DNA from: Dyadobacter jiangsuensis | GTDB taxonomy: Bacteria > Bacteroidota > Bacteroidia > Cytophagales > Spirosomataceae | DNA length: 24,000 nucleotides | NCBI RefSeq assembly: GCF_003014695.1 | Contig: NZ_PYAS01000001.1 | Span: 468,738-492,737 of the forward strand | Direction: 5' to 3' | Shown: positions 4,733-20,510 of the stretch, in pieces | Position numbering within the stretch: the stretch's first letter is position 1 | Layout of the letters: every line of letters starts with the position of its first letter | Notes under the pieces: model-generated | Told to the model about the DNA's origin: nothing | Seen by the model: the letters and a program-made list of their open reading frames with translations, nothing else | The model's database searches: none | Program-made: the position numbers and the translations under genes

Positions 4733-4859
4733 ACTTTTGAAAGAATGGTTAATTGATCACTCGATTGGCTGTCGACTCCGGCGTTCTGTCGCCAAACGCA
4801 CGCCGGAACAGCTCCACGGCTTGGCCGTGGGGTTTTTATAGTCTGTCAGGGGGCTTACG

Positions 4860-5825: not shown

Positions 5826-5903
5826 GGGGAACTCGACGTGTACATGAGGTTAGTTCCATAACTCCCCATGCATCCCTAAACGACTTACCTGAAAAACCAC
5901 GAA

Positions 5904-6425: not shown

Positions 6426-6501
6426 TGCCTGTGGTGTAGCGCCGTTAGTGGCGGATTTTCGGCAAAGAAATGGCTTATTTAGTTTAATTACAAATTAAGT
6501 A

Positions 6502-7338: not shown

Positions 7339-7429
7339 ATGTATATAATTTATTTATATATATGTTTGAGATTGGAAGGAACATTTATTTTGACTTCATA
7401 CAACGATTGATGTCACCCTCTGCCTCTTT

Positions 7430-8704: not shown

Positions 8705-8718
8705 AAACCAATCCCTGC
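8681..8718. terminator. Perfect 15-bp stem hairpin between convergent genes (probable bidirectional terminator)
   Basis: GCAGGGATTGGTTTT (8681-8695), an 8-nt loop, then AAAACCAATCCCTGC (8704-8718). It overlaps the TGA of the 424-aa gene and lies 10 nt from the stop of the minus-strand 583-aa gene. A/T runs at the stem base give U-tracts on both strands. Confidence 0.7.
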
Positions 8719-8728
8719 ATGCTAATTC

Positions 8729-10480
8729 CTAATCCGCAATGCTGGACGAAGCCGCAAGTTTAATATCGGCATGCTGCCAGGACTTCTCAAATGCCGATTT
8801 GACTGCCTGTGCTTCGTTGTTTTTTTGTTTTTCCAAAGCATTGTACAGGCCGATCAATGCCCAGCCGTTTTTCCTCCACGTCAGGAGATCCTGCCGGTAG
8901 ACACGTTCCGCTTCGGCATTTTTTCCGGCTTTGAGCAGTACCGCACCGAGGTGGTGCCTGACGGAGAAAAACCAGTCGGGCGGCTCGTTGTAGTTGAGGT
9001 TATCTTCGAGGGCGATGGCCTCATTGAGCAGGGCGGCAGATTTGTCGAGCTGGTTTTGCTGCGCGGCGATACCGGCCGACAATACCTTGGAGGCGATTTG
9101 CACGAGATCCACGGAGGTGTTGATGTTCCATACCGTAATGTTTTTCAGCGTTGTGTCAGCGGCCAATGCGGCAAGCGACTTCATTTCTTCCTGCGCGTGG
9201 GGCAGGTCATGTTTGCCCAGAAACGCCATTCCCCTCGCGTAATGCCAGATTGCCTGCGGATAAATCAGATCGTTGCCCGGCTTGGGCTCGGCCAGGAGGG
9301 TATCCCACATCGAGAATTTTGTCGCTACATAATACGGGATAGTGTAATAATGCTGCAGCGTGCCCCATCCGGGCTGGCGCATCACTTCCTTCGCGGTGTA
9401 ATGCTGCACTTTCCGGGCAGCGAGCCAGGCCAGGTCGGAGTTGCCTTCAAGGGTGGCGGTAGCTACCAGGAAGTGGTAGTTGTGCGGGAAATAGGCGAGC
9501 GGGTAGGCACCTTGCGCGTGACAAGTGGTGATGTAGTTGCTGTCTGCCTCGACCGAACTTACATTGGAAAGCGACCCCAAATGATAATCGCCGGTATTGA
9601 TGTAAATATGCGACGGCATGTGGAGCAGGTGGCCTGCGCCCGGAACCAGCGAGTCGAGTAATGCGGCCGACGCCATCGCTTTTTCAGGCATGGCGGAAGC
9701 CTCCACGGCGTGTATGTACAGGTGATGTGCGCCCGGATGCCGCGGGTTCTTTTTCAGCAGGCTTTCCAGTACAGCGAGCAGCGTCGGCGTCCAGGATTTG
9801 GCGGCTTTCGTCTTTTTGTCGTACAAATCCCAAGGATGCAGGTCCATTTGCGCTTCGGCGTACAGCGCCCCGATGTCGGGATCGGTAGGGAATTGGTCGT
9901 ACACTTTTTTCATCGCGGCCGCGAACGCGATATCCAGCGGCGACCTGTCGGCAGGAGGGGTTTCGGTATACCGCGTGGTCAGTGCGCCGATCAGCGCCTT
10001 TTCTTTGGGGGTGCATTTGGCCGCCAGTTTTTGTCCTTTTTGAGTAGCCGCCCAGGCGCGCTGGAAATTGTCCGGCTCCATGCCCGCATTGTAATTAGGG
10101 CCCAGCACATAGGCATAGCCCCAATAGGCCATGGCGCAGGTCGAATCGAGGCGGGTAGCCTGGTAAAACGACCGGGCGGCCTCAGCGTGGTTGAAACCGT
10201 AGGAAAGCATCAGTCCCTGGTTAAAATAGGCCTGTGCCTCCGGACTGGAAGTGGTAATCTTGAAATCGATGCCCTTCAATCCGTCGAGCATGGGTGCCTT
10301 TTTGCCCGAACTATACCATTCGGCGTCGGTGGTTTTGGGATTGTAGCAAACCGTAATCCGCCCCGTAGTGTCGGAGGCCGGTTTTTCCGATTGCTCCTTT
10401 TTTTTGAAGCAGGACGAAAGGAGTACAATCAATGCGAGGTAACAATGGCCGTGCTTCATGAGCGTAGAAGTTTGAGTCAC
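8729..10480 (-). CDS. TPR-like repeat lipoprotein, function unknown
   Basis: 583-aa ORF. The likely start is the ATG at 10459 (MKHGHCYLALIVLLSSC, lipobox). The protein is all-helical and repeat-like (AQAYFNQGLMLSYGFNHAEAARSFYQA..; C-terminal ..LLKAGKNAEAERVYRQDLL..). It carries conserved-looking His clusters (HPGAHHLYIHAVE, GAGHLLHMPSHIY). Confidence 0.8.
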   Translation of the reverse strand: MTQTSTLMKHGHCYLALIVLLSSCFKKKEQSEKPASDTTGRITVCYNPKTTDAEWYSSGKKAPMLDGLKGIDFKITTSSPEAQAYFNQGLMLSYGFNHAEAARSFYQATRLDSTCAMAYWGYAYVLGPNYNAGMEPDNFQRAWAATQKGQKLAAKCTPKEKALIGALTTRYTETPPADRSPLDIAFAAAMKKVYDQFPTDPDIGALYAEAQMDLHPWDLYDKKTKAAKSWTPTLLAVLESLLKKNPRHPGAHHLYIHAVEASAMPEKAMASAALLDSLVPGAGHLLHMPSHIYINTGDYHLGSLSNVSSVEADSNYITTCHAQGAYPLAYFPHNYHFLVATATLEGNSDLAWLAARKVQHYTAKEVMRQPGWGTLQHYYTIPYYVATKFSMWDTLLAEPKPGNDLIYPQAIWHYARGMAFLGKHDLPHAQEEMKSLAALAADTTLKNITVWNINTSVDLVQIASKVLSAGIAAQQNQLDKSAALLNEAIALEDNLNYNEPPDWFFSVRHHLGAVLLKAGKNAEAERVYRQDLLTWRKNGWALIGLYNALEKQKNNEAQAVKSAFEKSWQHADIKLAASSSIAD

Positions 10481-10643
10481 AGATCATGTAGAAGGAAAGT
10501 ATCCCGCGAGGTGCGGTACCCGCAAATATAGAAAATATCGAACTGGTAATGAGTTGGTTGGAGGGTTTTTAGTGAACGGTTGATGCAGGTTTGTAATATG
10601 CCTGCAAAGAAGCAGGATGACTAACTCTGCATCTTATACGCTG

Positions 10644-11081
10644 CTATTTTTTCCTCCGATACTTGCTAATTCCTCCCAGGCACGACTTAATCGTCATTTC
10701 ATCCCCTGTTTGCGTAATGATCAGCTTCGGGCAAATGATGCAATCGACGAGCCTGCAATTCTCGTCGAAGGGGATGTCTTTCTGCGGTTTTACTTTAAAC
10801 ACCTTTCCGTTCACCTCGTATTCGGACGTGGCGCAGCAAGCCCCCAACCCGTCGTATAGCATTACGCCGTCGAAGCGTATCGAAAAGGCCCTTTGCGGTT
10901 CGTTGGTCATGTTTTTAATCACGGTAGAATCGCCTAACGTGTATCGGGTTTCCACCAAAAGCCAATCGCCGACGATGCCTGCGATCTCGGGCACAGGCTG
11001 TGGTTCGGGTTCTGCATTTTTATCGCGTTTGCAATAGGTAAATGCCAAAGAGAGAAGCAGGAGAAGTACAAGTCGTTTCAT
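10644..11081 (-). CDS. Small Cys-rich lipoprotein, function unknown
   Basis: 145 aa. MKRLVLLLLLSLAFTYC has a signal peptide and lipobox. A GDW.. motif follows the linker, and the mature part contains seven further Cys residues. Confidence 0.8.
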   Translation of the reverse strand: MKRLVLLLLLSLAFTYCKRDKNAEPEPQPVPEIAGIVGDWLLVETRYTLGDSTVIKNMTNEPQRAFSIRFDGVMLYDGLGACCATSEYEVNGKVFKVKPQKDIPFDENCRLVDCIICPKLIITQTGDEMTIKSCLGGISKYRRKK

Positions 11082-11165: not shown

Positions 11166-12971
11166 TTACGCTTCATTTTCGAAGCGTCGAATCCGATGGC
11201 AACGCATCAATTTCAAATGCCGCTGATGCTCCCGCACCATCTCGACACCATCCCTGAGCGTCATTTGAGGTGCCCCTTTTTTCGCATTTGCCATGCTGAT
11301 TTCAAAAAGTATTTTCCAATGCCGGTAAATCTCTTTCCAGGCGAAGAACAGCGAATGCTGCGGATCGTAGATGTGTGTCGGTTCGCTGGCCGCGCCGTTG
11401 AGTTCGATGATTGAGAAATGCTGTCCGGCTTCGAGTGCTTCCCAGCTTTTGAAGCGGATGTCGAGCCGCCCGAAATGGAAGCCGGGTATGCGCGCGCATA
11501 TCCGGTCGATCGCCTGTGTGAGCGCGGGGGTGATGCGACGGCTGAGGTCTATGAATTTCGCGCCGCGGCTATGGTTGCCGTAAGGGACGAGGCCGATTTT
11601 TTCACCCCTTGCAGGAACTGACCTTAACCGCTCGCCCAGGGACTCATGCAGGGCGGGGAGTTGCAAAATCGCCCGGTCGTCCTGCATCATCAGCGTCAGG
11701 ATGTCCGATGCGCCGTCTCCGGTGACGCTCAACAGCTCCTTCCCGACGATGCCCGAAATGTGTCCGCTTTGTTCGCCCGGCATTCGGTGATAGAATATGC
11801 CCGCTTCGTTCGGGTAGTCGATGTAGGGCTGCATGAGGAAATCGACCCGGCTGTGCAGGCGATAATCTTCGAGATCGGTTTCATTTTCCAGGAGCTTTAC
11901 CTGCACGCCGCGTTCGCCGATGTCGGGTTTAGCGATCAAGGGGAATGTGAACGAGGAGCGCTGTAACAGCATTTGTATTTTCTCCCGCGGAATGCCTGCC
12001 TCACACACCAAAGTTTCAGGGTACGAGCCCTTTGGCATGAGCGCGTAAATCCTGCTCTTACGTTCTTCGGCGAAGCCCGCATACCGCATCGAGGGGTTGG
12101 CCGCGCCGAAAAAGCAGATTGCACGCGCCTTTATGCTTAACCAAAGCCAGGCTGGTAGCGTGGGCGCATACACGCATTCCAACGGCCAGTATTCCCAATT
12201 ACGGAGGCGGATCAGAAAGCGCCTGGCCTTCCAGCGGAGGCTGTCAAATGCCATTTGCTCACCCGGCGGCGCCTCTGCCGGCCGGGAAACAAAAGTGGTT
12301 CCGGCGCGGAGGTCATGGTAATGCATGGCGGGCTCGGGGCCGGTCAGATCGACGGAAGTAACGCTCACGGTAGCTATTGCGTCGCGATGTTCATGACAGC
12401 TGTGGCTGGGATCGAACATAATGCCGTTTTGGGTGTGAAAATCCAGGATGCTTTCCCTGGTGACGGCGCTTTTGCCGTACCATTGTTGCAGCCTTTGCGC
12501 CCGCATTTGCCGTGCATCATCATTATACAGCGTCGCCGATGCCCATATATGCGGCTGATGGGCATCAAGTTCGTTCCGGTGTTTGCGGCTGCCGTCCCAG
12601 GTACAGCGCATGAGCCTGCCGTCTGTGAACAGGATCAGCGTAAAGGGTTCGATTCCTTCCAAAACCGTCGTTTCAAAACAGTCTGCCGGAGAAGACGCCT
12701 CCACGATTTCCAGCATTACCAGGCCGCGGCTTCTGTTGTACGAGGGCTTGCGTACATGATTTTTGAAGCCCCCGTTGAGCAGCACGGCCGCGTCGCGCCG
12801 GCCTTTCAGTGCAATCCAGGTGCCGCCAGCCTGGGCATCTTTCGGGTAGGTGAGCGAGGCGCCTGCGTGGCGGGTTGCGGGAGGCTCGGCAGGCGCACGA
12901 TCGGTGCGTTCATCCCGGTTGGATGTCAGGAACGCGCCTTTACTGGTCGGAATGTAGGTTACGGTGCACAT
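11166..12971 (-). CDS. Fusion protein: N-terminal NRDE/TANGO2-family domain plus C-terminal ATP-grasp ligase domain
   Basis: 601 aa. The N-terminus MCTVTYIPTSKGAFLTSNRDERTDR has Cys2 and the NRDE signature. A Pro/Ala linker lies near aa 230-240. ATP-grasp motifs are present: FPLIAKPDIGERGVQV (Lys348), FLMQPYI (aa 379-385), and GRLDIRF...FSIIELNGAASEP (Asp504, Glu523, Asn525). The start codon overlaps the DinB gene stop by 13 nt. Confidence 0.85.
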   Translation of the reverse strand: MCTVTYIPTSKGAFLTSNRDERTDRAPAEPPATRHAGASLTYPKDAQAGGTWIALKGRRDAAVLLNGGFKNHVRKPSYNRSRGLVMLEIVEASSPADCFETTVLEGIEPFTLILFTDGRLMRCTWDGSRKHRNELDAHQPHIWASATLYNDDARQMRAQRLQQWYGKSAVTRESILDFHTQNGIMFDPSHSCHEHRDAIATVSVTSVDLTGPEPAMHYHDLRAGTTFVSRPAEAPPGEQMAFDSLRWKARRFLIRLRNWEYWPLECVYAPTLPAWLWLSIKARAICFFGAANPSMRYAGFAEERKSRIYALMPKGSYPETLVCEAGIPREKIQMLLQRSSFTFPLIAKPDIGERGVQVKLLENETDLEDYRLHSRVDFLMQPYIDYPNEAGIFYHRMPGEQSGHISGIVGKELLSVTGDGASDILTLMMQDDRAILQLPALHESLGERLRSVPARGEKIGLVPYGNHSRGAKFIDLSRRITPALTQAIDRICARIPGFHFGRLDIRFKSWEALEAGQHFSIIELNGAASEPTHIYDPQHSLFFAWKEIYRHWKILFEISMANAKKGAPQMTLRDGVEMVREHQRHLKLMRCHRIRRFENEA

Positions 12972-13465
12972 TGCGCCTGGCGGTATCGGATGGTGGAACT
13001 GGCTACTCCGAAATTCTCCGGCAGTTGCACGGCGGCGAGCGCCCGGATGCCGATTTTCATCAAAGCCATATGATGCACCGCATGTTCAAGGTTGTAAACC
13101 AGCTCCCGCTCATAGTTGGTGGTCACCTGGAAGCCGCTATGGCTGGCCTCGGTGGCGGTTGTTAACAGCAGCATTTTGTTCTCCTTTTCCAGCGCAGCTG
13201 CAATCCCGTGCAGGGTAGTTAGCGCCAGTTCCCGCTGGTGTTCAATGGCTTTATCGCGTTGCCTGGCGTCGTAGTTCACACGGCCTGTCCGGTAACCGCG
13301 GTCGAGCTCGATGAAGAACTCGATCACGTGGCGTACGTGCCCGCCCAGCGACGCGCCCGAGAGTACGGGCAAGCTGCGCCCATACTGCTCGTCGGACAAT
13401 GCATCGAGCATTGTGCCGATCTGCGCCAATGTGGCTTTAATTGATTTTGTTAGTTGCCTGTTCAT
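12959..13465 (-). CDS. DinB-family (four-helix bundle, His-triad) protein
   Basis: Internal ATG at 13465 gives 168 aa starting MNRQLTKSIKATLAQIGTMLDALSDEQY. His motifs GGHVRHVIEFF and LEHAVHHMALM fit the DinB/DinB_2 metal site. The longer track ORF (to 13615) would overlap DoxX. Confidence 0.85.
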   Translation of the reverse strand: MNRQLTKSIKATLAQIGTMLDALSDEQYGRSLPVLSGASLGGHVRHVIEFFIELDRGYRTGRVNYDARQRDKAIEHQRELALTTLHGIAAALEKENKMLLLTTATEASHSGFQVTTNYERELVYNLEHAVHHMALMKIGIRALAAVQLPENFGVASSTIRYRQAQCAP

Positions 13466-13526
13466 TTCGTTGATTTTGGAATAGGACAAAAACAATGCCC
13501 GGTTTTTTGAAGATTGGGGTTTACGT

Positions 13527-13949
13527 TTAATCGCGGGATTTGACGCCCGAAATGCTGCTGCGATGCCAGTACACGAGCACCAGGCAGGTAATGAGTACAA
13601 CCAACGCCATAACAAAAAGCTTGCCCGAGTCGTTTAGCACCACGATCCCCAGGCGTGTGAGGTGCATAAAGACGGCGCCGGTCATCACGCCGATGCCGAT
13701 CAGCGCGCCGTAGGCGGTAGTGCGTGGGATCAGAATCAGAACGGAGGCGATCAGCTCCAATACGCCTACGAATATACGTCCCCAGGGCTCCATACCGACG
13801 GTCGAAAAGATGTAAACGGATTCGGGTGCGGCGGAAAATTTGAAATAGAGGGTTTGCAGCATAATCACTGCCGCTGTCAGCCGCAGCAACCACGACCACC
13901 CCGGATGTGTTTGCGGTTTCATCACTCCTTGTCTTTGATTAGTGGCCAT
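13527..13949 (-). CDS. DoxX-family integral membrane protein
   Basis: About 131-140 aa with four hydrophobic segments (e.g. WLLRLTAAVIMLQTL.., IFVGVLELIASVLILIP, YGALIGIGVMTGAVFMH, LFVMALVVLITCLVLVYW), typical of DoxX. The likely start is ATG 13922, which shares one nt with the upstream gene's stop (TGATG). The alternative start at 13949 would overlap that gene by 28 nt. Confidence 0.85.
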   Translation of the reverse strand: MATNQRQGVMKPQTHPGWSWLLRLTAAVIMLQTLYFKFSAAPESVYIFSTVGMEPWGRIFVGVLELIASVLILIPRTTAYGALIGIGVMTGAVFMHLTRLGIVVLNDSGKLFVMALVVLITCLVLVYWHRSSISGVKSRD

Positions 13950-14362
13950 TGTATGTCTGCTTTTTCGATGAATTCTTCCCGTTTTTTCGACCAGTTGTTT
14001 CTGACTTTCATATTATAATTGAAATACAACTTGTTGTCTGTGATCGTCCAGGTTTCTGCTTCGGTAGGCGCTTTGTGGCCCTCGGAAGTCCCGTAGGCGC
14101 AGTAGCCGCCGTACTGCGGCACATACATCTCGGGAGCGGCCTTGAATGCGTCGAGGTTGGCGCGGGTGGCGAACAGCCAATCGGCGTCCTTGTAATGGTA
14201 GGAAAGGCTATCGGCACCTTCAACGGGTCCGGCGTCTTTGAAAAATGCCACGACGTCGTAACCCTTGATTGCCTTTCCTTTCGGCGCGAAAATTTCGGAT
14301 TTCTGTGCAAATGTTACCTGGGCCGCGAGCATGAATGCGGCAACGAATAGGACTTTGTTCAT
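13922..14362 (-). CDS. YHS-domain family exported protein (paralog 1)
   Basis: 146 aa with signal peptide MNKVLFVAAFMLAAQVTFAQ. Family motifs are IKGYDVVAFF, Y..ADWLFATRANLDAFKAAPEMYVPQYGGYCAYG and KLYFNYN. Confidence 0.85.
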   Translation of the reverse strand: MNKVLFVAAFMLAAQVTFAQKSEIFAPKGKAIKGYDVVAFFKDAGPVEGADSLSYHYKDADWLFATRANLDAFKAAPEMYVPQYGGYCAYGTSEGHKAPTEAETWTITDNKLYFNYNMKVRNNWSKKREEFIEKADIQWPLIKDKE

Positions 14363-14377
14363 TGGTAATTCGAGTTT

Positions 14378-14845
14378 TTAAGGTACAAACTTCATCCAGT
14401 TACGGTCGGCCTGCGTTTTCAGGCGTGCCTCATCCTGGTTCCAGCTTTTGAGGGTGTTGTTGAAGAACTTATTATAAAACAGGTAGAGCTTTGCGTCCAC
14501 AATTTTGAAAGTCTCCGGGTCGATCTCCACCTTTTCGCCTTTCTTGCCCATGGCATAAGCGCACCAGCCACCGAATTGCGGCTCGTATCGGACGGGGTTG
14601 CGCAGGAACTCGTCCTTATTTTGCTTGGAAGCAAAGCGGTAGGTAACCCCGTTGTGGTTGGCCGAAAGGTCCTTTTGGCCAACCACGGCCTTGTTCATGG
14701 TGAAATAGGCCACCGGGTCGTAACCCTGTATCGCGAGGCCGGATGATTCGAGGTTATACTGTTTTTTCCGAGTCTCTGCATGCTGCGCGAAGACGGTGCC
14801 CGTCACCAGCAGCAGAAGCAACAGGATATTGATCTGGCTTTTCAT
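14378..14845 (-). CDS. YHS-domain family exported protein (paralog 2)
   Basis: 155 aa with signal peptide MKSQINILLLLLLVTGTVFAQ. Motifs are IQGYDPVAYF, GVTYRFASKQNKDEFLRNPVRYEPQFGGWCAYA and KLYLFYN. It lies 15 nt upstream of paralog 1. Confidence 0.85.
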   Translation of the reverse strand: MKSQINILLLLLLVTGTVFAQHAETRKKQYNLESSGLAIQGYDPVAYFTMNKAVVGQKDLSANHNGVTYRFASKQNKDEFLRNPVRYEPQFGGWCAYAMGKKGEKVEIDPETFKIVDAKLYLFYNKFFNNTLKSWNQDEARLKTQADRNWMKFVP

Positions 14846-14847
14846 GG

Positions 14848-16173
14848 TTATTGCAATGTCACTTTAATGATATTGTTGATCGCCGGAAGCGTCGTGAACT
14901 TGTTCGGGTTGGGGACGGGCGCGATGGCTTTGCTCTCATTCAATGGTGTGCCTGCCAGATTGAATTGCGTAATGCCCGCGCCGGGGAACTGGTCGATGGC
15001 CGTGCCGTTATCATATAATCCGACAGCCCCCGAAATATCGCCGCTGGCATTACCGTCGATATCGTTGCCACTTGTAGCAAAGAACCAGTCGTTCGAGAAG
15101 CCGTACATGGTCGCAATGGCGATGCGGTCGCCGGATGTAAGCGTGAGCGGTTGCGAAACTTTGCCGCCTGTATTCCCGCCGATTTTCGGCAATAGCACCG
15201 TGCTCATCGGTTCTTTGAGGACGTATACATTTTTAATGCCGGCTTTCATTTTCAATGCGGCAGCCAGCACGTCGGCATTTCCTTTTTGTGCAAGTTCTTT
15301 CAGGCCTTCGCCGCGGTCATTCTCGCCGGATTTGAAAAACGGATTTTCATTACCGTTGTAAACCACCACCAATACCGGTGAAAGTGGCGTGAAAATGCCG
15401 GTTTGCGAGGCCAGCCAGGTACTCATCGGGGCATTGTCGCCGGCTTCGGCGATGGGGGTCAGTGCATCGGTGGTGGCTTTGCCTTCGGAATAAACGGGTT
15501 CGGGAAGCAGCAGGTTACCGCCTGCCACGTAAGAAATGGCCCATACGCCGGGGCTGAAAGGCGTCTCGTTGGCGGTGCCCCCCGACTGGTTTTTAATCGT
15601 AATGGTAAACATCGAGCTGCCGTCATAGGCCAGGGAGACGTTCATGAGCTGGGAGGCAGGCAGGAATGCATGGCCATAGTCGTCCATTCCCGTTACTTCC
15701 TTGATATTGCGCGGCGTGGCTTCGGCTGTACCCGGGTGCGTTACGCCCATGCCGGGCGCCTGGTTCACGCGGGAGCCATTGTCCCAGAGTTTGATCTGGG
15801 TGGAAACGTCGCCCGTAATAGGGGCACCATTGTCGTCGTACAGCCTGATCCCCGGATTGGCAGGGGCAAAGAAAAGGTCATTGCTCCATCCGTACATGGT
15901 GGCGAAGGTAAGGCGCTGGTTTTTGGCGGCTGAAAACGAGAAGGATACCGATTGGCCCGGCAATATCACGGGCGGCGTGCCGGTTCCTTTGAATGTGCCC
16001 GATTGCACAAGCGGTTTGGCGTCGAGGACGTTTTCAATGGTAAGGGTTTTGGCGGTCGGCTGCGGGTCGTGGTCGTCGGTGCAGGCTCCGAAAATGAGGG
16101 CCGTCAGCGACAGCCCGAGTAGTGATCTGATCATGTCTGTTTCCGTTTTGAATCGTTGGATGATGCAAAGCAA
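14848..16173 (-). CDS. Lipoprotein with two spondin_N-like repeats
   Basis: The likely start is ATG 16134 (MIRSLLGLSLTALIFGAC, lipobox). There is an internal duplication (TFATMYGWSNDLFFAP..IRLYDDNG..NQAPGMG and IAIATMYGFSNDWFFAT..VGLYDNGTAIDQFPGAG). FSPGVWAISY and PFFKSGE..GEGLKELAQKGNADVLAAAL resemble bacterial spondin-domain proteins; that assignment is from memory. Its stop is 2 nt from the next gene's start. Confidence 0.75.
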   Translation of the reverse strand: MLCIIQRFKTETDMIRSLLGLSLTALIFGACTDDHDPQPTAKTLTIENVLDAKPLVQSGTFKGTGTPPVILPGQSVSFSFSAAKNQRLTFATMYGWSNDLFFAPANPGIRLYDDNGAPITGDVSTQIKLWDNGSRVNQAPGMGVTHPGTAEATPRNIKEVTGMDDYGHAFLPASQLMNVSLAYDGSSMFTITIKNQSGGTANETPFSPGVWAISYVAGGNLLLPEPVYSEGKATTDALTPIAEAGDNAPMSTWLASQTGIFTPLSPVLVVVYNGNENPFFKSGENDRGEGLKELAQKGNADVLAAALKMKAGIKNVYVLKEPMSTVLLPKIGGNTGGKVSQPLTLTSGDRIAIATMYGFSNDWFFATSGNDIDGNASGDISGAVGLYDNGTAIDQFPGAGITQFNLAGTPLNESKAIAPVPNPNKFTTLPAINNIIKVTLQ

Positions 16174-16272
16174 CCAACACGGTATCCCGGCAGCGTCACG
16201 GAATTATAACAAAAGTATCACAGCGGTATTCCGCGCTGTTTTATTTGTAAACTTTGCAGAAAATCAGCGGAT
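16135..16272. promoter_or_regulatory. Divergent control region between the spondin-YHS-DoxX-DinB-NRDE operon and the two-component system genes
   Basis: 138-nt gap between divergent starts. On the minus strand there is an exact TAnnTTTG match (TACTTTTG, about 16217-16210), the Bacteroidota -7 consensus, about 76 nt before the ATG. A near-match, AAACTTTG, lies on the plus strand about 17 nt before the regulator ATG. A 10-bp direct repeat CGGTATCCCG / CGGTATTCCG (about 16180-16189 and 16224-16233) flanks the -7 box. Confidence 0.45.
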
Positions 16273-16977
16273 ATGGACACCAAAAACGTGTTGATCGTCG
16301 AGGACGATACCAACATTACCGAATTGCTTTCGATCCACCTTTCGGACCTGGGATGCAAGGTGGTCTCAGAGAAAAACGGGCAGAACGGCCTCACGCGGGC
16401 GCAAGACGAAAATTTTGACCTGATCATACTTGATGTGATGCTGCCTGGCCTGAATGGAATGGAGATATGCCGGAAAATCAGGCAGGCCGACCGGCAGACG
16501 CCCATCATGATGCTTACCGCGCGTTCGGAGGAAATAGACAAGGTAATGGGCCTCGAAACCGGTGCCGACGATTACCTTACCAAGCCTTTCAGCGTGCGCG
16601 AGTTTATTGCACGGGTGCGGGTGATATTCAGAAGAAGTGAGGAGAAGGCACGTTACGCGGCGCCGGTGCCGCAGCTGATCCGTATTGCAGGGCTGGAAAT
16701 CGATATGGACAAGCGCAAGGTAATGCTGCACGGCGAACGGCTCGATTTATCGCCGCGTGAATTTGAACTGATCGTGCTGTTGGCGTCGAATCCGGGGAAA
16801 AGTTACAGCCGCAAGCAGCTGCTGAGTCTCGTGTGGGGCTACGATTTCGAGGGATACGAGCATACGGTCAATACGCATATCAATCGGCTGAGAGGAAAAA
16901 TCGAGGCCGATGCTTCCAATCCTGTATTTGTTTTAACCACCTGGGGCATCGGCTACCGGTTTAACGAAGATCTGTGA
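16273..16977 (+). CDS. OmpR/PhoB-family response regulator (receiver plus winged-helix DNA-binding domain)
   Basis: 234 aa. Receiver motifs are VLIVEDD, DLIILDVMLPGLNG, IMMLTA and KPF. The C-terminal winged helix reads LSPREFELIVLLASNPGKSYSRKQLL..VWG..Y....TVNTHINRLRGKIE....VLTTWGIGYRF. Confidence 0.95.
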   Translation: MDTKNVLIVEDDTNITELLSIHLSDLGCKVVSEKNGQNGLTRAQDENFDLIILDVMLPGLNGMEICRKIRQADRQTPIMMLTARSEEIDKVMGLETGADDYLTKPFSVREFIARVRVIFRRSEEKARYAAPVPQLIRIAGLEIDMDKRKVMLHGERLDLSPREFELIVLLASNPGKSYSRKQLLSLVWGYDFEGYEHTVNTHINRLRGKIEADASNPVFVLTTWGIGYRFNEDL

Positions 16978-16978
16978 A

Positions 16979-18445
16979 ATGTCAGTAAGAACCATCGGGG
17001 GTAACCTTCTCTTCTGGAAAATAAGCGGTGTTTTTACGAGCCTGCTGATCATCCTCGGCATCATATTCGTCATGATCGCCTCCCGGTTTTCGAAGTCGTA
17101 TTATATGACAGCCCACCAACAGCTGTACGGTGGAATCGCGCAGCACCTGGCCACATTTACCCAGCCCATTAAAAATGGCAAGCCCGATACGACGGTTACG
17201 CACGACATTATCCATTCCACCATGGTCGCGAATCCGAGCGTAGAAGTATACCTCCTCGACACGCTCGGGAACATTACCGACTACGTGGTGCCCCAGGCCT
17301 CCGTACAGATGAAGCGGGTCGATATGGCGATCGTGCGCGAATGGCTTGCCTCGGATGCCGGTAAACCCATGGGCGATAATCCGAAGCATCCCGGCGAAGC
17401 CAGTATTTTCTCGGTGGCACCGGTGCTGGAAAACGGCGTGAAGGTCGGGTATGTGTACGCGGTGCTCGCGAGCGAGACCCAGAAACAGATTCTCGCCTCG
17501 CTGACCGACGACCTGAATTTCAGGCTGGCTGCCTACATTTTTTTCGCTGCATTGCTTGGGGCGTTTGTCGTGGGAATTGTCACATTCTTTCTCATCACCG
17601 ATAGCATATGCAGCATTGCCGGCGTCGTGAAAAGGTTCAAGGATGGCGATCACGCTGCACGCGTGCACGGGTATGCGACGGGGAACCTGGGCGTACTAAC
17701 CTCCACATTCAACGACATGGCCGATGTGATCGTCGATAATATCGAAAAGATCACCGCCACCGACCGGCTCCGGCAGGAACTGATCGCCAATGTTTCGCAC
17801 GATTTACGGACACCGCTTTCGATTATGCAGGGGTACGTCGAGACGATGATGATCAAAAAGGATACGCTCTCGGAGCCGGAGAAGGAGCGGTACCTGGCTA
17901 TTGTGCAGGAAGGGACCCGCAAGCTTTCGGGGCTGGTGGACCAGTTGTTTCAATACTCGAAACTGGAAGCGAATGTGGTGTCGGTACAAAAAGAGGTATT
18001 TCCCCTGGATGAGCTGGTTTCGGACATCCTCAGCTCGTACCAACTGAAAGCCGACGAGCGGGGCATCCGGCTCTCGATGGAAACCGTTCCCGCCCTGCCG
18101 CCCGTTTTTGCCGATATCGCGCTGACGGAACGGGTGTTCCAGAACCTGCTCGACAATGCTTTCAAGTTTACCCCGGAAGGCGGGCAGATTACCGTACGCC
18201 TCGAAGACTCCGGTAAAGGGATCAAAATCCGGGTTGCCGACACAGGAGTAGGTATTGCGAAGGCTTACCAGGAGCAGATTTTCGAACGCTACAAGCAGGC
18301 GGAAATGTACCCGTCGGGGCAGAAGGGCGCAGGCCTCGGCTTGGCGATCGTTCGGAAAATACTGGAATTACATCAAACCACGATCGAGGTAGTCAGCGAG
18401 AGTGGGAAAGGTGCTGCTTTTGAATTTGTCATGCACCGGGCATAA
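16979..18445 (+). CDS. Sensor histidine kinase (2 TM helices, periplasmic domain, HAMP, HisKA, HATPase_c)
   Basis: 488 aa. TM1 is VFTSLLIILGIIFVMIA, followed by a periplasmic segment of about 150 aa and TM2 LAAYIFFAALLGAFVVGIVTFFLI. Other motifs are a HAMP domain, H-box ANVSHDLRTPL, N-box LLDNAFKFTPEGG, G1 VADTGVGI and G2 GAGLGLAIV. The ATG is 1 nt after the regulator's stop. Confidence 0.95.
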   Translation: MSVRTIGGNLLFWKISGVFTSLLIILGIIFVMIASRFSKSYYMTAHQQLYGGIAQHLATFTQPIKNGKPDTTVTHDIIHSTMVANPSVEVYLLDTLGNITDYVVPQASVQMKRVDMAIVREWLASDAGKPMGDNPKHPGEASIFSVAPVLENGVKVGYVYAVLASETQKQILASLTDDLNFRLAAYIFFAALLGAFVVGIVTFFLITDSICSIAGVVKRFKDGDHAARVHGYATGNLGVLTSTFNDMADVIVDNIEKITATDRLRQELIANVSHDLRTPLSIMQGYVETMMIKKDTLSEPEKERYLAIVQEGTRKLSGLVDQLFQYSKLEANVVSVQKEVFPLDELVSDILSSYQLKADERGIRLSMETVPALPPVFADIALTERVFQNLLDNAFKFTPEGGQITVRLEDSGKGIKIRVADTGVGIAKAYQEQIFERYKQAEMYPSGQKGAGLGLAIVRKILELHQTTIEVVSESGKGAAFEFVMHRA

Positions 18446-18593: not shown

Positions 18594-20441
18594 GTGAAAC
18601 AAGCGACCATTAAGAAATTTCGCTCATTCCTGAAATTCAAAAGGGGGCTGACTGCGTACAGTTTAAGAAAGTTCAAACTCTATGAAGTCATTGTCTTTTG
18701 GCTTAAAAGCATCCTTACCCGGTCGCAGTTCCTGATCCTATCGGGGATATTGGTGGGATGCAGTGCTGGATTGGCCGGTGTGGTCTTAAAATCGCTGGTC
18801 CATGCCATTCATCACCTGATTACCCACAAGGTCCATTTCGAAACCCAGATTTTCTTTTATGCGGTGTTCCCCTTCCTGGGGATCGTACTCACTTCCCTTG
18901 TCGTTGTCCTGTTCTTCGGGGGCAATGACCGGAAAGGCATACCTGCCATTTTGCACGAGATCGCGCAGAATTCCAGTATCGTGGCTCCGGTAAAAATGTA
19001 CTCCCAGGTGGTGCAAAGTGCTATAACCGTGGGGCTTGGGGGCTCGGCCGGTCTGGAAAGTCCTATTGCGGTAACCGGTTCGGCGATCGGATCCAATTTC
19101 GCACAAACCTATAAACTCGATTACCGCGAGCGTACTTTGTTGCTTGCCGCGGGCGCCACGGCGGGGATCGCTTCGGCATTCAACGCTCCGATTGCCGGGA
19201 TGATGTTCGCTGTCGAAATACTGCTTACCGGTGTGGTGTTCACCGATTTCATACCGCTCGTACTGGCTGCCGTCTGCGGCAATGTGCTTTCCAGAATGCT
19301 GCTCAATGAGGAAACCCTTTTCCATTTCAGCAGCCGGCACCCGTTTAACTACCATAATCTGCCCTTTTACCTTGTGTTGGGCGCATTGTGTGGACTTTAT
19401 GCCCGGTATTTTGTGGTAATCGGGCATCAGGTCGAGCGATTTTTTGGCAACCTGAAAGGCGGAAGGTTAAGAAAAGCCATGATCGGGGGCGGGATGCTGT
19501 CGGTACTTTGCGTGTTGTACCCACCGTTGTTCGGGGAGGGTTACGAAACCGTCAAGGCACTGGTCAACGGGCAGGTGGGGGAGTTGATGGAAAACAGTTT
19601 TTTCGGTATCGTCGGCGGGCAGCGGTGGGCGGTTGTGGTGTTTCTGACGATTGTTTGCCTCCTGAAAGCATTTGCCAGTTCCATCACCATTTTCAGCGGC
19701 GGTAATGGCGGTAACTTTGCGCCGTCGCTTTTTGCAGGCGGTACCCTCGGATTTGTATTTGCATTATTCTGCAACTTTATCGGCATTTCCGATGTACCCG
19801 TAGCCAACCTGGTGCTGGTGGGGATGGCGGGCGTCATGAGCGGCGTGCTTTATGCCCCGCTGACGGCCATATTTCTTATCGCCGAATCCAGCTCGGGATA
19901 CGACCTGTTTATTCCCCTCATGGTGGTAGGCGTGATGTCGTTCCTGATCTCCAAATGGTTTTCTACCATTTCTCCCGATTTGCAAAGGCTGGCCGATGAG
20001 GGCAAAATATTCACCCGGGAACACGACCGGAACCTGCTTTCGCAGTTGAATACCCTGGATTTCATCGACAGGGACGTGCCCGTCGTGGACATCGACCTGC
20101 CATTTGAAAATTTCGTTGATGCATTGCATGAAAACAGCCATAACCACCTGGCTGTGGTGGACCGTAATGGTATTTTTCGTGGGATGATCCTCGTGAAAGA
20201 CCTCTATCCCTACCTTTTTGCAACGGGAGAAGTTGCTGGCTTATCGGTAGCGTCGTTCGTACGCCAGCCGCCGGCGACCGTCGGGGAAAACGAGCCCGTC
20301 GCCCGGATTGTGACCCGATTTGACCAAACCGGTTCCTGGCATTTGCCGGTCGTTGATCCTCAGGGCCGTTACATCGGTTTTATCGCAAAATCGAGGTTGC
20401 TCGATCGTTACCGCAGCTTGCTTCAAGCGCATTCGGGCTGA
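18594..20441 (+). CDS. ClC-family chloride channel / Cl-:H+ antiporter homolog with C-terminal CBS pair
   Basis: 615 aa. ClC motifs are KGIPAI (GSGIP position), GGSAGLESP (GREGP position, Glu retained), AFNAPIAGMMFAVE, GGNFAPSLF and SSGYDLFIPL. The C-terminus is CBS-like (VVDRNGIFRGMILVKDL.. / LPVVDPQGRYIGFIAKSRLL). The GTG start at 18594 is the only in-frame start before the first TM region. Confidence 0.9.
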   Translation: MKQATIKKFRSFLKFKRGLTAYSLRKFKLYEVIVFWLKSILTRSQFLILSGILVGCSAGLAGVVLKSLVHAIHHLITHKVHFETQIFFYAVFPFLGIVLTSLVVVLFFGGNDRKGIPAILHEIAQNSSIVAPVKMYSQVVQSAITVGLGGSAGLESPIAVTGSAIGSNFAQTYKLDYRERTLLLAAGATAGIASAFNAPIAGMMFAVEILLTGVVFTDFIPLVLAAVCGNVLSRMLLNEETLFHFSSRHPFNYHNLPFYLVLGALCGLYARYFVVIGHQVERFFGNLKGGRLRKAMIGGGMLSVLCVLYPPLFGEGYETVKALVNGQVGELMENSFFGIVGGQRWAVVVFLTIVCLLKAFASSITIFSGGNGGNFAPSLFAGGTLGFVFALFCNFIGISDVPVANLVLVGMAGVMSGVLYAPLTAIFLIAESSSGYDLFIPLMVVGVMSFLISKWFSTISPDLQRLADEGKIFTREHDRNLLSQLNTLDFIDRDVPVVDIDLPFENFVDALHENSHNHLAVVDRNGIFRGMILVKDLYPYLFATGEVAGLSVASFVRQPPATVGENEPVARIVTRFDQTGSWHLPVVDPQGRYIGFIAKSRLLDRYRSLLQAHSG

Positions 20442-20510
20442 TTTTGCCTTTGTTTAAAAGAATACTTTTTTAACTTGCCAGCCCTGTATTTCTCACCAGA
20501 ACCACGTGCT

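Follow-up and report, generated by a model that had tools for sequence, protein, structure and literature searches.

The window, that is, the whole 24,000-nucleotide stretch of Dyadobacter jiangsuensis DNA that was analyzed, contains six minus-strand genes that face a divergently transcribed OmpR-type regulator and histidine kinase across 138 nt. The features are as follows.

11166-12971, minus strand: NRDE and ATP-grasp fusion, 601 aa (PF05742; fold)
12959-13465, minus strand: DinB-fold protein, 168 aa (fold; DinB_2 in homologues)
13527-13922, minus strand: DoxX-family membrane protein, 131 aa (Pfam DoxX_2, DoxX)
13922-14362, minus strand: YHS2, 146 aa (NF041384)
14378-14845, minus strand: YHS1, 155 aa (NF041384)
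14848-16134, minus strand: spondin-like lipoprotein, 428 aa (NF038123)
16135-16272, no strand: divergent control region, 138 nt (conserved block)
16273-16977, plus strand: OmpR/PhoB-type response regulator, 234 aa (Pfam Response_reg, Trans_reg_C)
16979-18445, plus strand: sensor histidine kinase, 488 aa (Pfam HisKA, HATPase_c)

The window matches Dyadobacter jiangsuensis, and an NCBI record has a protein 100% identical to the fusion. Re-derived coordinates reproduce the junctions given in an earlier note on this DNA: 2 nt, 15 nt, a 1-nt overlap (TGATG) between YHS2 and DoxX, 61 nt, and a 13-nt overlap between the DinB-like stop codon and the fusion start. The divergent regulator and kinase with their shared control region are likewise as that note described them. 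Profile and fold searches confirm its family calls for all six products, the DinB-like protein at the superfamily or fold level only. The three products to which it ascribed lipoprotein or signal peptides are the spondin-like protein, which has a lipobox, and, by inspection, both YHS proteins.

The spondin-like protein matches NF038123 in three stretches (212.6 bits versus a cut-off of 40; 6.4e-63) and has two internal repeats. The Cys18 lipidation site in its lipobox, LIFGAC, is its sole cysteine; the Cys-based character proposed for the periplasmic proteins is thus confined to the two YHS proteins. These two are 33% identical paralogues that score 141 and 144 bits against the NF041384 cut-off of 70 (E-values of 1.5e-41 for YHS1 and 1.7e-42 for YHS2). 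The RefSeq name "YHS domain-containing (seleno)protein" in the earlier note is correct (NF041384; PMC13188914); in some relatives within this known selenoprotein family, Sec takes the G-x-C position. Each protein has a single cysteine, Cys95 in a GGWC motif in YHS1 and Cys88 in a GGYC motif in YHS2. The G-G-x-C motif is invariant in the YHS alignment, and the classical GYCPV is replaced by GYDPV or GYDVV. Both signal peptides end in FAQ, predicting export. Both paralogue types are conserved in different lineages, and locus L106 encodes them as a single fused protein. The DoxX protein scores above the Pfam cut-off for both DoxX_2 (30.8 bits) and DoxX (26.8 bits), and its hydropathy profile shows four hydrophobic segments, three of them strong and the fourth weaker. 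No conserved cysteine was found in the window protein or, by inspection, in its homologues.

The 168-residue protein falls below the Pfam cut-off for DinB (20.7 versus 23 bits; 4e-4), and DinB_2 matches 34 of its 41 homologues. The top Foldseek matches of its AF2 model (pLDDT 91.4) are all DinB, YjoA, YizA, YfiT, MDMPI, or MST proteins at TM 0.57-0.63, with weak E-values of 2.5e-3 or worse. Its invariant residues are H43, R45, H46, E49, Y65, R68, R70, R120, E121, H128, H131, and H132. In the fusion (AF2 pLDDT 87.8), an N-terminal NRDE/TANGO2-type Cys-Ntn hydrolase domain (approximately aa 1-232; nt 12276-12971) is followed by a C-terminal ATP-grasp ligase domain (approximately aa 245-590; nt 11202-12239), with an aromatic, moderately hydrophobic helix pair (WEYWP) just ahead of the latter. 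The first domain matches PF05742 (36.2 bits versus a cut-off of 22.6; 9.7e-9) and resembles isopenicillin N acyltransferase, TANGO2, acid ceramidase, NAAA, and bile salt hydrolase in Foldseek. No Pfam ATP-grasp model matches the window fusion, and the second domain is assigned by fold only, from its resemblance to GshF, cyanophycin synthetase, and Ddl. Invariant residues of the fusion include M1, C2, T3, V4, R19, D20, E21, K348, P349, D350, Q381, E389, D504, E523, and N525. The NRDE motif thus has an invariant Cys2 and R-D-E, with a nearly invariant Asn18, and the ATP-grasp residues K348, D504, E523, and N525 are invariant in distant family members as well. With its catalytic residues kept and its folds matching amidases or acyltransferases and ligases, the fusion is predicted to be catalytically competent.

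The ATP-grasp domain is part of a large family in which the longer proteins usually also contain, as fusions, membrane translocator-like domains (VTT or LysE) and hydrolases. Among 34 longer representatives, 28 carry a VTT/DedA-like domain, three an N-terminal LysE domain, and 13 an alpha/beta hydrolase. In the protein P0414, an amidase and a ligase are fused again, together with an alpha/beta hydrolase and a VTT domain, and a WEFWP helix directly follows the last TM segment. Neither the fusion nor the DinB-like protein of the window has a hydrophobic 19-mer. Because the family is habitually fused to translocator-like domains, a point missed in the earlier note, a membrane or export role is at least as likely as a soluble cytoplasmic one.

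Conservation was assessed in 102 seeded related loci, and the called-gene tables of seven further loci were also inspected. Outside Spirosomataceae, 29 of the 45 informative loci combine YHS, DoxX, DinB, and the fusion, arranged in eight gene orders and drawn from three further classes (Sphingobacteriia, Chitinophagia, and Flavobacteriia), with proteins only 40-58% identical. A gene arrangement that recurs in dozens of loci at this level of identity is far beyond chance, and these 29 loci show the co-occurrence of at least four of the six families for which the earlier note proposed to look. In 73 of 77 loci, the gene immediately upstream of the fusion is the DinB-like one, whose 13-nt overlap is kept in 73 of 74 junctions; a DoxX gene also lies upstream in 48 of 61 loci, and DoxX and DinB overlap or abut in other genomes. 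DinB and the fusion occur without YHS or DoxX in 10 of the 45 loci, and L106 has YHS, DoxX, and DinB without NRDE or ATP-grasp. The constant core is therefore the DinB-like, NRDE, and ATP-grasp set, with YHS and DoxX as a frequent second arm. Amidase and ligase are fused across loci of four classes and split into adjacent genes in Flavobacterium. A LysE gene lies directly downstream in 28 of 62 non-Spirosomataceae loci, and the order DinB, amidase, ligase, exporter is conserved. Neither a LysE nor a VTT gene is present in the window operon or anywhere in the 24 kb, so a common member of the cluster is missing here. As a conserved neighborhood, the proposed unit stands; the full six with the two-component system are the Spirosomataceae edition, found besides in a few unassigned metagenomic contigs.

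The accessory genes vary. Among 49 informative loci, 14 have a spondin gene upstream of the fusion, but once the Dyadobacter/Larkinella genome loci are set aside the count is only 2 of 37; in L026, L027, and L031, the gene occupies other positions. The spondin-like gene is a lineage-restricted accessory that, like the two-component system, was added mostly in Spirosomataceae. Elsewhere, the additions are DM13 "electron transfer" proteins, YceI (about eight loci), or an exported CGPC thioredoxin-like protein. Alpha/beta hydrolases, peroxiredoxin-like genes, rhodanese, and nitroreductase adjoin some loci, and TonB-dependent receptors adjoin some clusters. A CoaB-like gene (cysteine-ligase family) lies inside a Pedobacter cluster at one locus only.

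Regulation varies as well. In the 138-nt control region, a conserved block, GTGATACTTTTGTTATA (16205-16221, minus strand), contains a Bacteroidota-type -7 box, TACTTTTG (16210-16217), a putative promoter element. The motif G[TG]GATAC, a candidate binding site, is repeated at 16215-16221 and 16182-16188. The region is 138-140 nt long in 12 Spirosomataceae loci, and even the distant metagenomic locus L024 carries the block unchanged. The response regulator (Response_reg, 1e-29; Trans_reg_C, 1e-25) reaches none of the NCBIfam equivalog cut-offs. Every complete Dyadobacter/Larkinella locus has it next to the cluster, as do L024 and L035. The kinase has two TM segments and a periplasmic loop. Among NCBIfam models, only that of the heavy-metal sensor family, TIGR01386, aligns with it over the full length, and membership was rejected at 124.5 bits versus a cut-off of 292.55; the regulator scores 191.9 versus 279.2 bits against its heavy-metal family. 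Elsewhere, the regulators are ECF sigma factors or Crp regulators. In 10 loci, the neighbor of the ECF sigma factor is a small protein whose motif, C-x(23-26)-H-x3-C-x2-C, resembles that of zinc anti-sigma factors, with sub-threshold zf-HC2 matches.

We propose, at a probability of roughly 40%, that a ligase/amidase pair at the membrane and an envelope redox arm are linked by an amide compound; here, we infer all of the chemistry, which way the electrons flow, and what the compound is. Family knowledge and the accessory genes make a redox or thiol function plausible: S-transferases that use bacillithiol or mycothiol belong to the DinB superfamily, one of whose Bacteroidota members makes N-methyl-bacillithiol (PMC6336425). 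The first arm would lie at the cytoplasmic membrane face, where a DinB-fold metalloprotein would be translationally locked to the NRDE amidase and a membrane-proximal ATP-grasp ligase. The ligase would most likely build an amide-linked compound, probably bearing an amino acid or a thiol, and the amidase, with its N-terminal Cys nucleophile, would cleave the same kind of bond. In many lineages, the LysE-type exporter would move the product to the outer side of the membrane. The second arm, in the envelope, would comprise one or two exported single-Cys YHS proteins (Sec in some relatives) and DoxX, joined by a variable partner, which is spondin in this window and DM13, YceI, or a thioredoxin-like protein in other lineages. 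This arm may act as a redox relay, coupled to the membrane or to the quinone pool, that uses, or is serviced by, the exported compound. Expression would be set by a lineage-recruited envelope or stress regulator, here the divergent two-component system. Because L106 lacks NRDE and ATP-grasp and 10 loci lack YHS and DoxX, DinB is the shared hinge of the two arms. Several observations count against this two-arm proposal: export in Dyadobacter is unaccounted for, with no LysE or VTT gene in the 24-kb window; DoxX has no conserved Cys; the DinB support is weak in both Pfam and Foldseek; the zf-HC2 matches of the putative anti-sigma proteins are sub-threshold; the envelope arm is absent from those 10 of 45 loci, so the first arm can work alone; and the likeness to acid ceramidase, NAAA, and bile salt hydrolase, together with the VTT fusions, fits a lipid substrate equally well.

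Such a substrate is the basis of a somewhat unlikely alternative, in which the ATP-grasp enzyme adds an amino acid or similar group to an inner-leaflet lipid or carrier, LysE or VTT flips it, and NRDE or an alpha/beta hydrolase removes the group, with YceI, DoxX, and spondin handling the lipid product rather than thiol redox. YceI is an isoprenoid/lipid-binding family, and its presence in about eight loci agrees with this scheme, as do the helix pair ahead of the ATP-grasp domain and the VTT/DedA-like (28/34) and alpha/beta hydrolase (13/34) fusions, DedA proteins being described as lipid flippases. In structure, the NRDE domain has lipid-amide hydrolases and an acyltransferase that depends on acyl-CoA as its neighbors; for TANGO2, binding of acyl-CoA has been reported (PMC11867700) and a substrate derived from fatty acids proposed (PMC13044924). 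However, the translocator within the Bacteroidota cluster is LysE rather than VTT, and the LysE family exports small molecules; genes for acyltransferases or lipid synthesis do not recur in the cluster; the enzymes with the most similar ATP-grasp folds use soluble carboxylates of amino acids or peptides; and neither the invariant DinB partner nor the single Cys/Sec of YHS is given a role. Thiol-conjugate detoxification is unlikely. Here, the DinB-like protein would conjugate a bacillithiol-type thiol to an electrophile or quinone, NRDE would cleave the conjugate, ATP-grasp would salvage or re-ligate a fragment, and LysE would export it, while in the envelope YHS and DoxX would deal with that toxicant. 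DinB-superfamily S-transferases, together with conjugate amidases and export, form an established pathway, and Bacteroidota contain N-methyl-bacillithiol (PMC6336425). The conserved order from DinB to exporter, the hydrolase, peroxiredoxin-like, rhodanese, and nitroreductase neighbors, and the CoaB-like gene fit as well, although the last is within the cluster at a single locus. Against this scheme, DinB membership is at the superfamily level only, from which thiol-transferase activity is not predictable; no conjugate amidase is known to be an NRDE protein; and there is no obvious need for a ligase.

Homeostasis of copper or a similar metal, with YHS proteins as periplasmic metal chaperones, a metal-sensing kinase, and enzymes that make and export a metal-binding compound, is quite improbable. 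Pfam describes YHS as a putative copper-binding domain of P-type ATPases and matches it weakly here, DinB proteins bind metals, the kinase aligns end to end with TIGR01386, and TonB-dependent receptors are among the neighbors. However, Asp replaces the classical YHS/TRASH cysteine of GYCPV, leaving a single Cys; the kinase and regulator score far under the heavy-metal cut-offs; and the 102 seeded loci show no recurrent gene for a P-type ATPase, RND efflux pump, multicopper oxidase, or CopZ, nor does one appear in the called-gene tables of the seven others. It is very improbable that the NRDE domain traffics heme to envelope electron-transfer proteins. In eukaryotes, DM13 domains are found together with DOMON domains that bind heme. 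The bacterial TANGO2 homologue HtpA of Shewanella is reported to be a heme-trafficking protein (PMC10470608), but heme binding by TANGO2 is reported to be non-specific and its role is contested (PMC13044924, PMC12782551). The invariant Cys2/NRDE constellation and the fused ligase argue for an enzyme, and no cytochrome or Ccm genes are found in the loci. That the genes form no functional unit, being two or three unrelated small operons that are merely neighbors in Dyadobacter, is already disfavored and has an equally slight chance. The 61-nt DoxX-DinB gap could hold a putative internal promoter, spondin and the two-component system are lineage-restricted, and the first arm stands alone in 10 of 45 loci; the co-occurrence of four families in 29 of 45 loci, across four classes and eight gene orders at 40-58% identity, and the overlapping or abutting DoxX and DinB genes elsewhere argue against it.

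The earlier note knew of no described pathway with this composition, and our search agrees: no paper on such a pathway or cluster was found in the literature searched. This widespread Bacteroidota gene cluster around a TANGO2-type amidase and an ATP-dependent ligase is apparently undescribed, and it offers a bacterial handle on the function of the human disease protein family TANGO2. In comparison with known systems, DoxX differs from DsbB-like thiol oxidases in having no conserved Cys, and a role as such an oxidase is therefore ruled out. The logic of a lipid-modification cycle would resemble that of an MprF-type aminoacyl-lipid synthase/flippase combined with a hydrolase, and the mercapturate pathway is the model for thiol-conjugate detoxification.

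The cluster consists of six minus-strand genes faced by a divergently transcribed two-component pair, with the following extents in the ORF listing (window positions):

14848-16134, minus strand: spondin-like lipoprotein
14378-14845, minus strand: YHS1
13922-14362, minus strand: YHS2
13527-13922, minus strand: DoxX
12959-13465, minus strand: DinB-like protein
11166-12971, minus strand: NRDE+ATP-grasp fusion, 601 aa
16273-16977, divergent from the six genes: OmpR-type regulator
16979-18445, divergent from the six genes: histidine kinase

The junctions along the cluster, read directly, are 2, 15, -1 (TGATG), 61 (the DoxX-DinB gap, 13466-13526) and -13 nt, and 138 nt separate the regulator/kinase pair from the six-gene set, which bears out the arrangement described in the earlier note. 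Inspection and hydropathy agree with the export and membrane signals it had listed. The spondin-like product has a lipobox (LIFGAC), YHS1 and YHS2 have signal peptides, and the hydrophobic segments of DoxX mark a multi-TM protein; no hydrophobic segment was found in the DinB-like protein or the fusion. The family assignments held, that of DinB at superfamily level: the spondin-like, YHS, DoxX and NRDE assignments pass profile cut-offs, whereas those of DinB and ATP-grasp are not made by Pfam and are instead backed by fold. The fusion product is 100% identical to an NCBI protein of Dyadobacter jiangsuensis (Cytophagia, Spirosomataceae).

Gene neighborhoods were compared at 109 loci (18 from genomes, 4 from genomes or assemblies via specific homologues, 80 metagenomic and fusion-seeded, and 7 YHS-seeded), scored by tblastn and de novo ORF clustering; the counts rest on the first 102. 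The DinB-like gene lies directly upstream of the fusion in 73 of 77 informative loci, and DoxX and YHS neighbor it in 48/61 and 42/57, respectively. Outside the Dyadobacter/Larkinella genome set, YHS, DoxX, DinB and the fusion occur together in 29 of 45 sufficiently flanked loci, which confirms that at least four of the six genes co-occur. Chance adjacency of the genes is therefore a less likely explanation, as the frequency of this co-occurrence, the eight gene orders in which it is found and the 40-58% protein identity among these loci rule out mere adjacency. Named genomes with the cluster belong to Sphingobacteriia (Pedobacter, Olivibacter), Chitinophagia (Chitinophaga, Flavitalea) and Flavobacteriia (Flavobacterium, Arenibacter). 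The proposal that the six genes form one unit stands for the YHS/DoxX/DinB/fusion set, whereas the spondin gene and the two-component system are lineage-restricted. Spondin is found upstream of the fusion in 14 of 49 informative loci and in 2 of 37 outside the Spirosomataceae genome loci; in L026, L027 and L031 it lies downstream or on the opposite strand, adjoining a YHS gene.

Several accessory genes recur with the cluster. The fusion is followed immediately by a gene for a LysE-type exporter in 28 of the 62 non-Spirosomataceae loci, and YceI, DM13 (an "electron transfer" domain) and small outer-membrane-barrel-like proteins also recur; LysE, VTT, YceI and DM13 were looked for across the window, and none was found. 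In one metagenomic locus (L024), spondin and YHS1 flank a gene for an exported thioredoxin-like protein with CGPC. Flavobacterium splits the fusion into an NRDE protein of 236 aa and an ATP-grasp protein of 344 aa, in the order DM13, barrel-like, YHS, YHS, DoxX, DinB (with the same overlap), NRDE, ATP-grasp, LysE. The split cluster in L103-L105 and L107, at about 5160-10790, includes Crp and a ~290-aa barrel-like protein; just upstream in L107 are two peroxiredoxin-like genes, a rhodanese and a MarR-nitroreductase-YceI set. Locus L106 has a YHS-YHS fused protein with DoxX and DinB in the absence of NRDE and ATP-grasp, and ten loci have DinB and the fusion in the absence of YHS and DoxX. Judged from these gene contents, the cluster is composed of two arms, DinB-like/NRDE/ATP-grasp and envelope YHS/DoxX, with the DinB-like gene common to both.

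Individual loci depart further from this plan. In Dyadobacter alkalitolerans (L017, 8057-10531), the operon has been lost naturally; a truncated regulator (aa 105-234) and a piece of the fusion (aa 415-592) are left, separated by a resolvase-like ORF and two small ORFs. In Pedobacter sp. PAMC26386 (L021, 7773-9071), a stand-alone CoaB-like gene (PF04127, 2.4e-62, phosphopantothenate-cysteine ligase family) and a barrel-like gene lie between YHS2 and DoxX; the CoaB-like gene is in the cluster in this locus only and is notable because of reports tying TANGO2 to CoA metabolism. The flanks of the window (2114-6425, 8729-11081 and 18594-23216) encode an ECF sigma/FecR/TonB-receptor set, a CLC chloride channel containing CBS domains, an Na+/H+ exchanger, a 583-aa TPR lipoprotein and a 145-aa lipoprotein. 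The two lipoprotein genes are kept beside the cluster only in some Dyadobacter, and none of the flanking genes recurs with it outside that genus.

The N-terminal half of the fusion matches the TANGO2/NRDE profile PF05742 over aa 15-130 (36.2 bits; cut-off, 22.6), as do all listed homologues, and the NRDE domain is N-terminal in every fusion found. Among 43 homologues, M1-C2-T3-V4 and R19-D20-E21 are invariant and N18 nearly so; the roles of the Cys after the initiator Met and of the N-R-D-E motif are taken from a published account, which also describes the amide hydrolase/acyltransferase activity of human TANGO2 itself as unproven (PMC13044924). In the AF2 model of the fusion (pLDDT 87.8), Foldseek relates this half to isopenicillin N acyltransferase, TANGO2, acid ceramidase, NAAA and bile-salt hydrolase, all within the four-layer alpha-beta-beta-alpha Ntn fold (2x1d, 9bwa, 8sv7, 3gvz, 5u7z and 6dy3, E 2e-8 to 9e-7).

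The C-terminal half resembles the GshF ligase domain, cyanophycin synthetase and Ddl, and its ATP-grasp fold is recovered against 3ln6, 7wae, 7ta5 and Ddl structures at E 1e-9 to 1e-6 (Foldseek). Fold comparison was needed because sequence searches against the PDB failed or were marginal: the fusion gave nothing as a single sequence and marginal ATP-grasp matches as a profile, and the DinB-like profile gave no real match. No Pfam ATP-grasp family (RimK, ATP-grasp_3/4, Dala_Dala_lig_C and others) matches the fusion at E <= 0.01, its NCBIfam ATP-grasp matches are weak and local, and RimK matches are sub-threshold in some distant relatives. K348, P349, D350, G352, G355, Q381, E389, R502, D504, E523 and N525 are invariant in the 43 homologues, and the equivalent nucleotide/Mg-binding residues (the Lys of K-P-x-x-G and Asp/Glu-x-Asn) are invariant in 34 distant fusion proteins. 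With C2, R19-D20-E21, K348, D504, E523 and N525 all invariant, both halves look catalytically competent.

An exhaustive search of 1.84 billion representative proteins returned 5,800 relatives, 1,529 of them at E <= 1e-30. Most match aa ~250-590 only and stand alone, with lengths of ~340-365 aa; only about five representative clusters are full NRDE fusions. Among the best 150 relatives, 34 are longer proteins, with a VTT/DedA-like membrane domain in 28, an alpha/beta hydrolase in 13, an N-terminal LysE domain in 3 and the combination TANGO2, alpha/beta hydrolase, VTT and ATP-grasp in 2. Proteins P0414, P0438, P0481, P0368 and others exemplify these longer forms, which mostly have VTT/DedA-like domains, often with an alpha/beta hydrolase, and sometimes LysE; P0414 begins MCTV...NRDE, and the W-E-[FY]-W-P helix of its ligase domain directly follows the last TM segment. 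Across these proteins, the ligase family thus recurs in combination with a membrane translocator-like domain and with a hydrolase, the latter having either of two unrelated folds. The strongest new mechanistic clue is that a ligase and a hydrolase may act on the same kind of bond at the membrane, together with export or flipping. A literature search found no paper on ATP-grasp fusions to VTT/DedA- or LysE-type membrane domains, and the analysis brings this large family to light.

The DinB-like protein scores below the Pfam cut-offs for both PF05163 (20.7 bits vs 23) and PF12867 (16.2 vs 24.8), and a DinB_2 match at E < 1 is obtained for 34 of 41 homologues. The best PDB matches of its AF2 model (pLDDT 91.4) are nearly all DinB-fold proteins at TM 0.5-0.63 (Foldseek), among them YjoA, YizA, YfiT, mycothiol-dependent maleylpyruvate isomerase and mycothiol S-transferase. 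H43, H46, H128, H131 and H132 are invariant in the homologues and are candidate metal ligands. Function differs among members of the DinB superfamily.

Of 74 junctions between the DinB stop and the NRDE start in the 102 seeded loci, 73 show an overlap of exactly 13 nt. The overlap, ATGTGCAC(A/C)GTAA (12959-12971 in the window), is kept across proteins that are 40-50% identical and persists where NRDE and ATP-grasp are separate genes; equivalent junctions were noted in L001-L102, L103-L105, L107 and L109. A conserved Cys three residues from the DinB C-terminus was considered as a modification site and rejected, because the overlap with the Met-Cys codons that open the next gene dictates this residue. 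In L106, both the DinB overlap and the C-terminal Cys are missing.

Both YHS proteins belong to NF041384 (NCBIfam, 141.1 and 144.2 bits vs 70, E ~1e-41 and ~2e-42), and the RefSeq name given in the earlier note, "YHS domain-containing (seleno)protein," is correct. This family is among the listed selenoproteins, with a GxU motif (PMC13188914, PMC1976440). The YHS core is retained and resembles the adenylate kinase 9 repeats, and the usual YHS Cys (GYCPV) is replaced by Asp. The sole, invariant Cys lies in a C-terminal GG[WY]C motif, at the Sec position of the selenoprotein relatives; among 38 YHS sequences, G92 and C95 do not vary and G93 hardly does. With only this one Cys/Sec, the proteins may act in redox or covalent catalysis and would need an external partner to do so. 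The idea of Cys-based envelope proteins survives for YHS, with its single invariant Cys, but not for the spondin-like protein, whose only Cys is the lipidation site and which is thus not itself a thiol protein. A split YHS match in L039 was entertained as a Sec (TGA) form and rejected, as the gene is an internally deleted hybrid. At 5900-6200 of that locus, a YHS1-type N-terminus is joined to a YHS2-type C-terminus and the GGxC segment is lost, probably by recombination or deletion.

DoxX passes the cut-offs of both DoxX_2 (30.8 bits vs 26.3) and DoxX (26.8 vs 23.6) (PF07681 / PF13564). The spondin-like protein matches NF038123 in three stretches (NCBIfam, 212.6 bits vs 40, E 6e-63), and nothing in Pfam matched it. 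It has two internal repeats (14848-16134) that share ATMYG[WF]SND[LW]FFA. An acidic run, TDDHD, directly follows the lipidated Cys and resembles the surface-export signal of Bacteroidota lipoproteins; the protein may thus be displayed on the cell surface and not lie in the periplasm. In a Dyadobacter MAG (L007, 8094-9056), spondin is cut to residues 1-64 and 376-428 and YHS2 to 116-146, with the rest of the cluster intact, which suggests that both are dispensable. TANGO2, spondin and DM13 are domain types known chiefly from animal proteins, and versions of this one bacterial cluster bring them together.

Dyadobacter, Larkinella and metagenomic loci L024 and L035 have the two-component system of the window beside the cluster, and other regulators are found elsewhere: an ECF sigma factor next to a small protein with the motif C-x(23-26)-H-x3-C-x2-C in 10 loci, and a Crp-type regulator in about 11, plus Flavobacterium. 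The small ECF-adjoining proteins (L013-L015, L021, L026, L027, L031, L034, L047 and L088) have 87-115 aa and no TM segment; their Cys/His spacing is that of zinc anti-sigma factors, of which the redox sensor RsrA is one, with sub-threshold zf-HC2 matches (E 0.005-0.1).

In 12 Spirosomataceae loci, the spacer between the two transcription units is 138-140 nt long, and the block GTGATACTTTTGTTATA is invariant, the distant L024 included. Within it lies a putative Bacteroidota-type -7 box, TACTTTTG (16210-16217), with the consensus TAnnTTTG. G[TG]GATAC occurs twice in the spacer as direct repeats, 33 nt apart, as a candidate regulator-binding site only. A sigma-70 promoter scan scored barely above shuffles; the model is not applicable to Bacteroidota promoters, and the scan was therefore not used for or against internal promoters. 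Rfam gave no RNA family over the whole window, and the control region is thus not explained by a riboswitch or leader. The inverted repeat at 16220-16239 was dropped as a conserved hairpin or palindromic operator, as its arms, compared by eye, lack covariation across species.

The best-supported reading, to which we assign a probability of about 40%, is a stress-regulated two-arm pathway that joins a ligase/amidase pair to an envelope arm. In this mechanism, a DinB-assisted ligase/amidase pair at the inner membrane face would build and turn over an amide-linked compound, which LysE would export in many lineages. In the envelope arm, YHS and DoxX, joined by electron-transfer or lipid-binding partners that vary, would use that compound, and lineage-specific stress regulators would govern the whole. 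The compound itself has two candidates. A thiol-bearing small molecule would agree with the S-transferase precedent of DinB, with the LysE exporter, thioredoxin-like protein and ZAS-like regulators, and with the occurrence of N-methyl-bacillithiol in Bacteroidota (PMC6336425). A modified lipid would instead agree with the VTT fusions of the ATP-grasp family, the lipid amidases among the structural neighbors of NRDE, YceI among the accessory genes and the acyl-CoA binding reported for TANGO2 (PMC11867700).

Two further explanations are less likely than the two-arm pathway. One is a metal homeostasis module; the regulator and kinase of the window score below the heavy-metal (CusRS/CopRS type) NCBIfam cut-offs (191.9 vs 279.2 and 124.5 vs 292.55). 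The other is heme trafficking, which figures with acyl-CoA binding and Ntn hydrolase activity in the dispute over TANGO2 family function (PMC13044924, PMC10470608, PMC12782551). We rate the cluster as a stress-regulated operon for envelope redox or detoxification that includes a bifunctional ligase/amidase. We consider it possible but somewhat unlikely that the cluster is a new envelope pathway in which a TANGO2-type Cys-Ntn amidase, a membrane-proximal ATP-grasp ligase and a DinB metalloenzyme cycle an amide-linked thiol or lipid metabolite that is handed across the membrane to single-Cys/Sec YHS and DoxX. The absence of a described pathway of this composition, as claimed earlier, is upheld by a literature search with the family names in combination, which found no description of the cluster and no paper combining these families.

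The finding is of value mainly because it places the disputed TANGO2 family, and also YHS and DoxX, in a bacterial context that can be tested. TANGO2 loss causes severe human metabolic disease, and the bacterial fusion is a tractable system for finding the family substrate; its catalytic residues are invariant, a ligase is fused to it, a DinB enzyme is locked on and its neighborhood is conserved. A conserved context is now assigned to two large families of little-known function, the YHS (seleno)proteins and DoxX_2 proteins, and the cluster suggests an uncharted stress-regulated link between cytoplasm and envelope in Bacteroidota. If the new-pathway reading is true, the fusion would give TANGO2 its first enzymatic substrate and pathway context, and one ancestral bacterial process would link the "animal-type" TANGO2, spondin and DM13.

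Small membrane proteins of the DoxX clan are paired with extracytoplasmic redox proteins in Mycobacterium tuberculosis DoxX-SseA-SodA, archaeal DoxDA thiosulfate:quinone oxidoreductase and MauE/MauD. The cluster has the same kind of membrane protein with putative extracytoplasmic redox partners. However, its DoxX partners are YHS proteins; rhodanese, superoxide dismutase and DoxA are absent from the cluster and a MauD-type partner from the window, and DoxX alone is in common with the Mycobacterium and Acidianus systems. Genes for SseA rhodanese, SodA and DoxA are neither present in the window nor recurrent in the 102 seeded loci, and a rhodanese lies near one Flavobacterium locus only. With BstA/YfiT, MST and the Mca/Bca route, the cluster has in common a DinB fold and its conserved His residues, a likeness confined to the superfamily level. 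The mercapturate-type order of transferase, amidase and exporter agrees with its gene order, whereas the known amidases of that route are not NRDE proteins and the route has no ligase.

The GshF C-domain, cyanophycin synthetase G-domain, Ddl and RimK are the best structural matches of the cluster ligase, with marginal sequence profile matches, and share its ATP-Mg Lys and Asp/Glu/Asn. Unlike these enzymes, the cluster ligase family has its own N-terminal aromatic helix pair, and most of its longer members include a VTT or LysE membrane domain. Known TANGO2/NRDE proteins (human TANGO2; Shewanella HtpA; PDB 8sv7, 9bwa and 3gvz) have PF05742, the fold, Cys2 and the NRDE motif in common with the fusion but are stand-alone proteins of ~250-280 aa, whereas the cluster version shares its chain with a ligase and is locked to a DinB gene. 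In architecture, the closest analogue is the E. coli glutathionylspermidine synthetase/amidase GspSA, whose amidase Cys is redox-sensitive. The GspSA amidase is CHAP rather than NRDE/Ntn, the ligase families differ and GspSA has no DinB, YHS, DoxX or LysE partners; the likeness is one of architecture only. In GspSA, a Cys-nucleophile amidase at the N-terminus and an amide ligase of ATP-grasp type at the C-terminus make up one chain, the two halves act on the same bond of a thiol metabolite, and the domain order and logic are those of the NRDE+ATP-grasp fusion.
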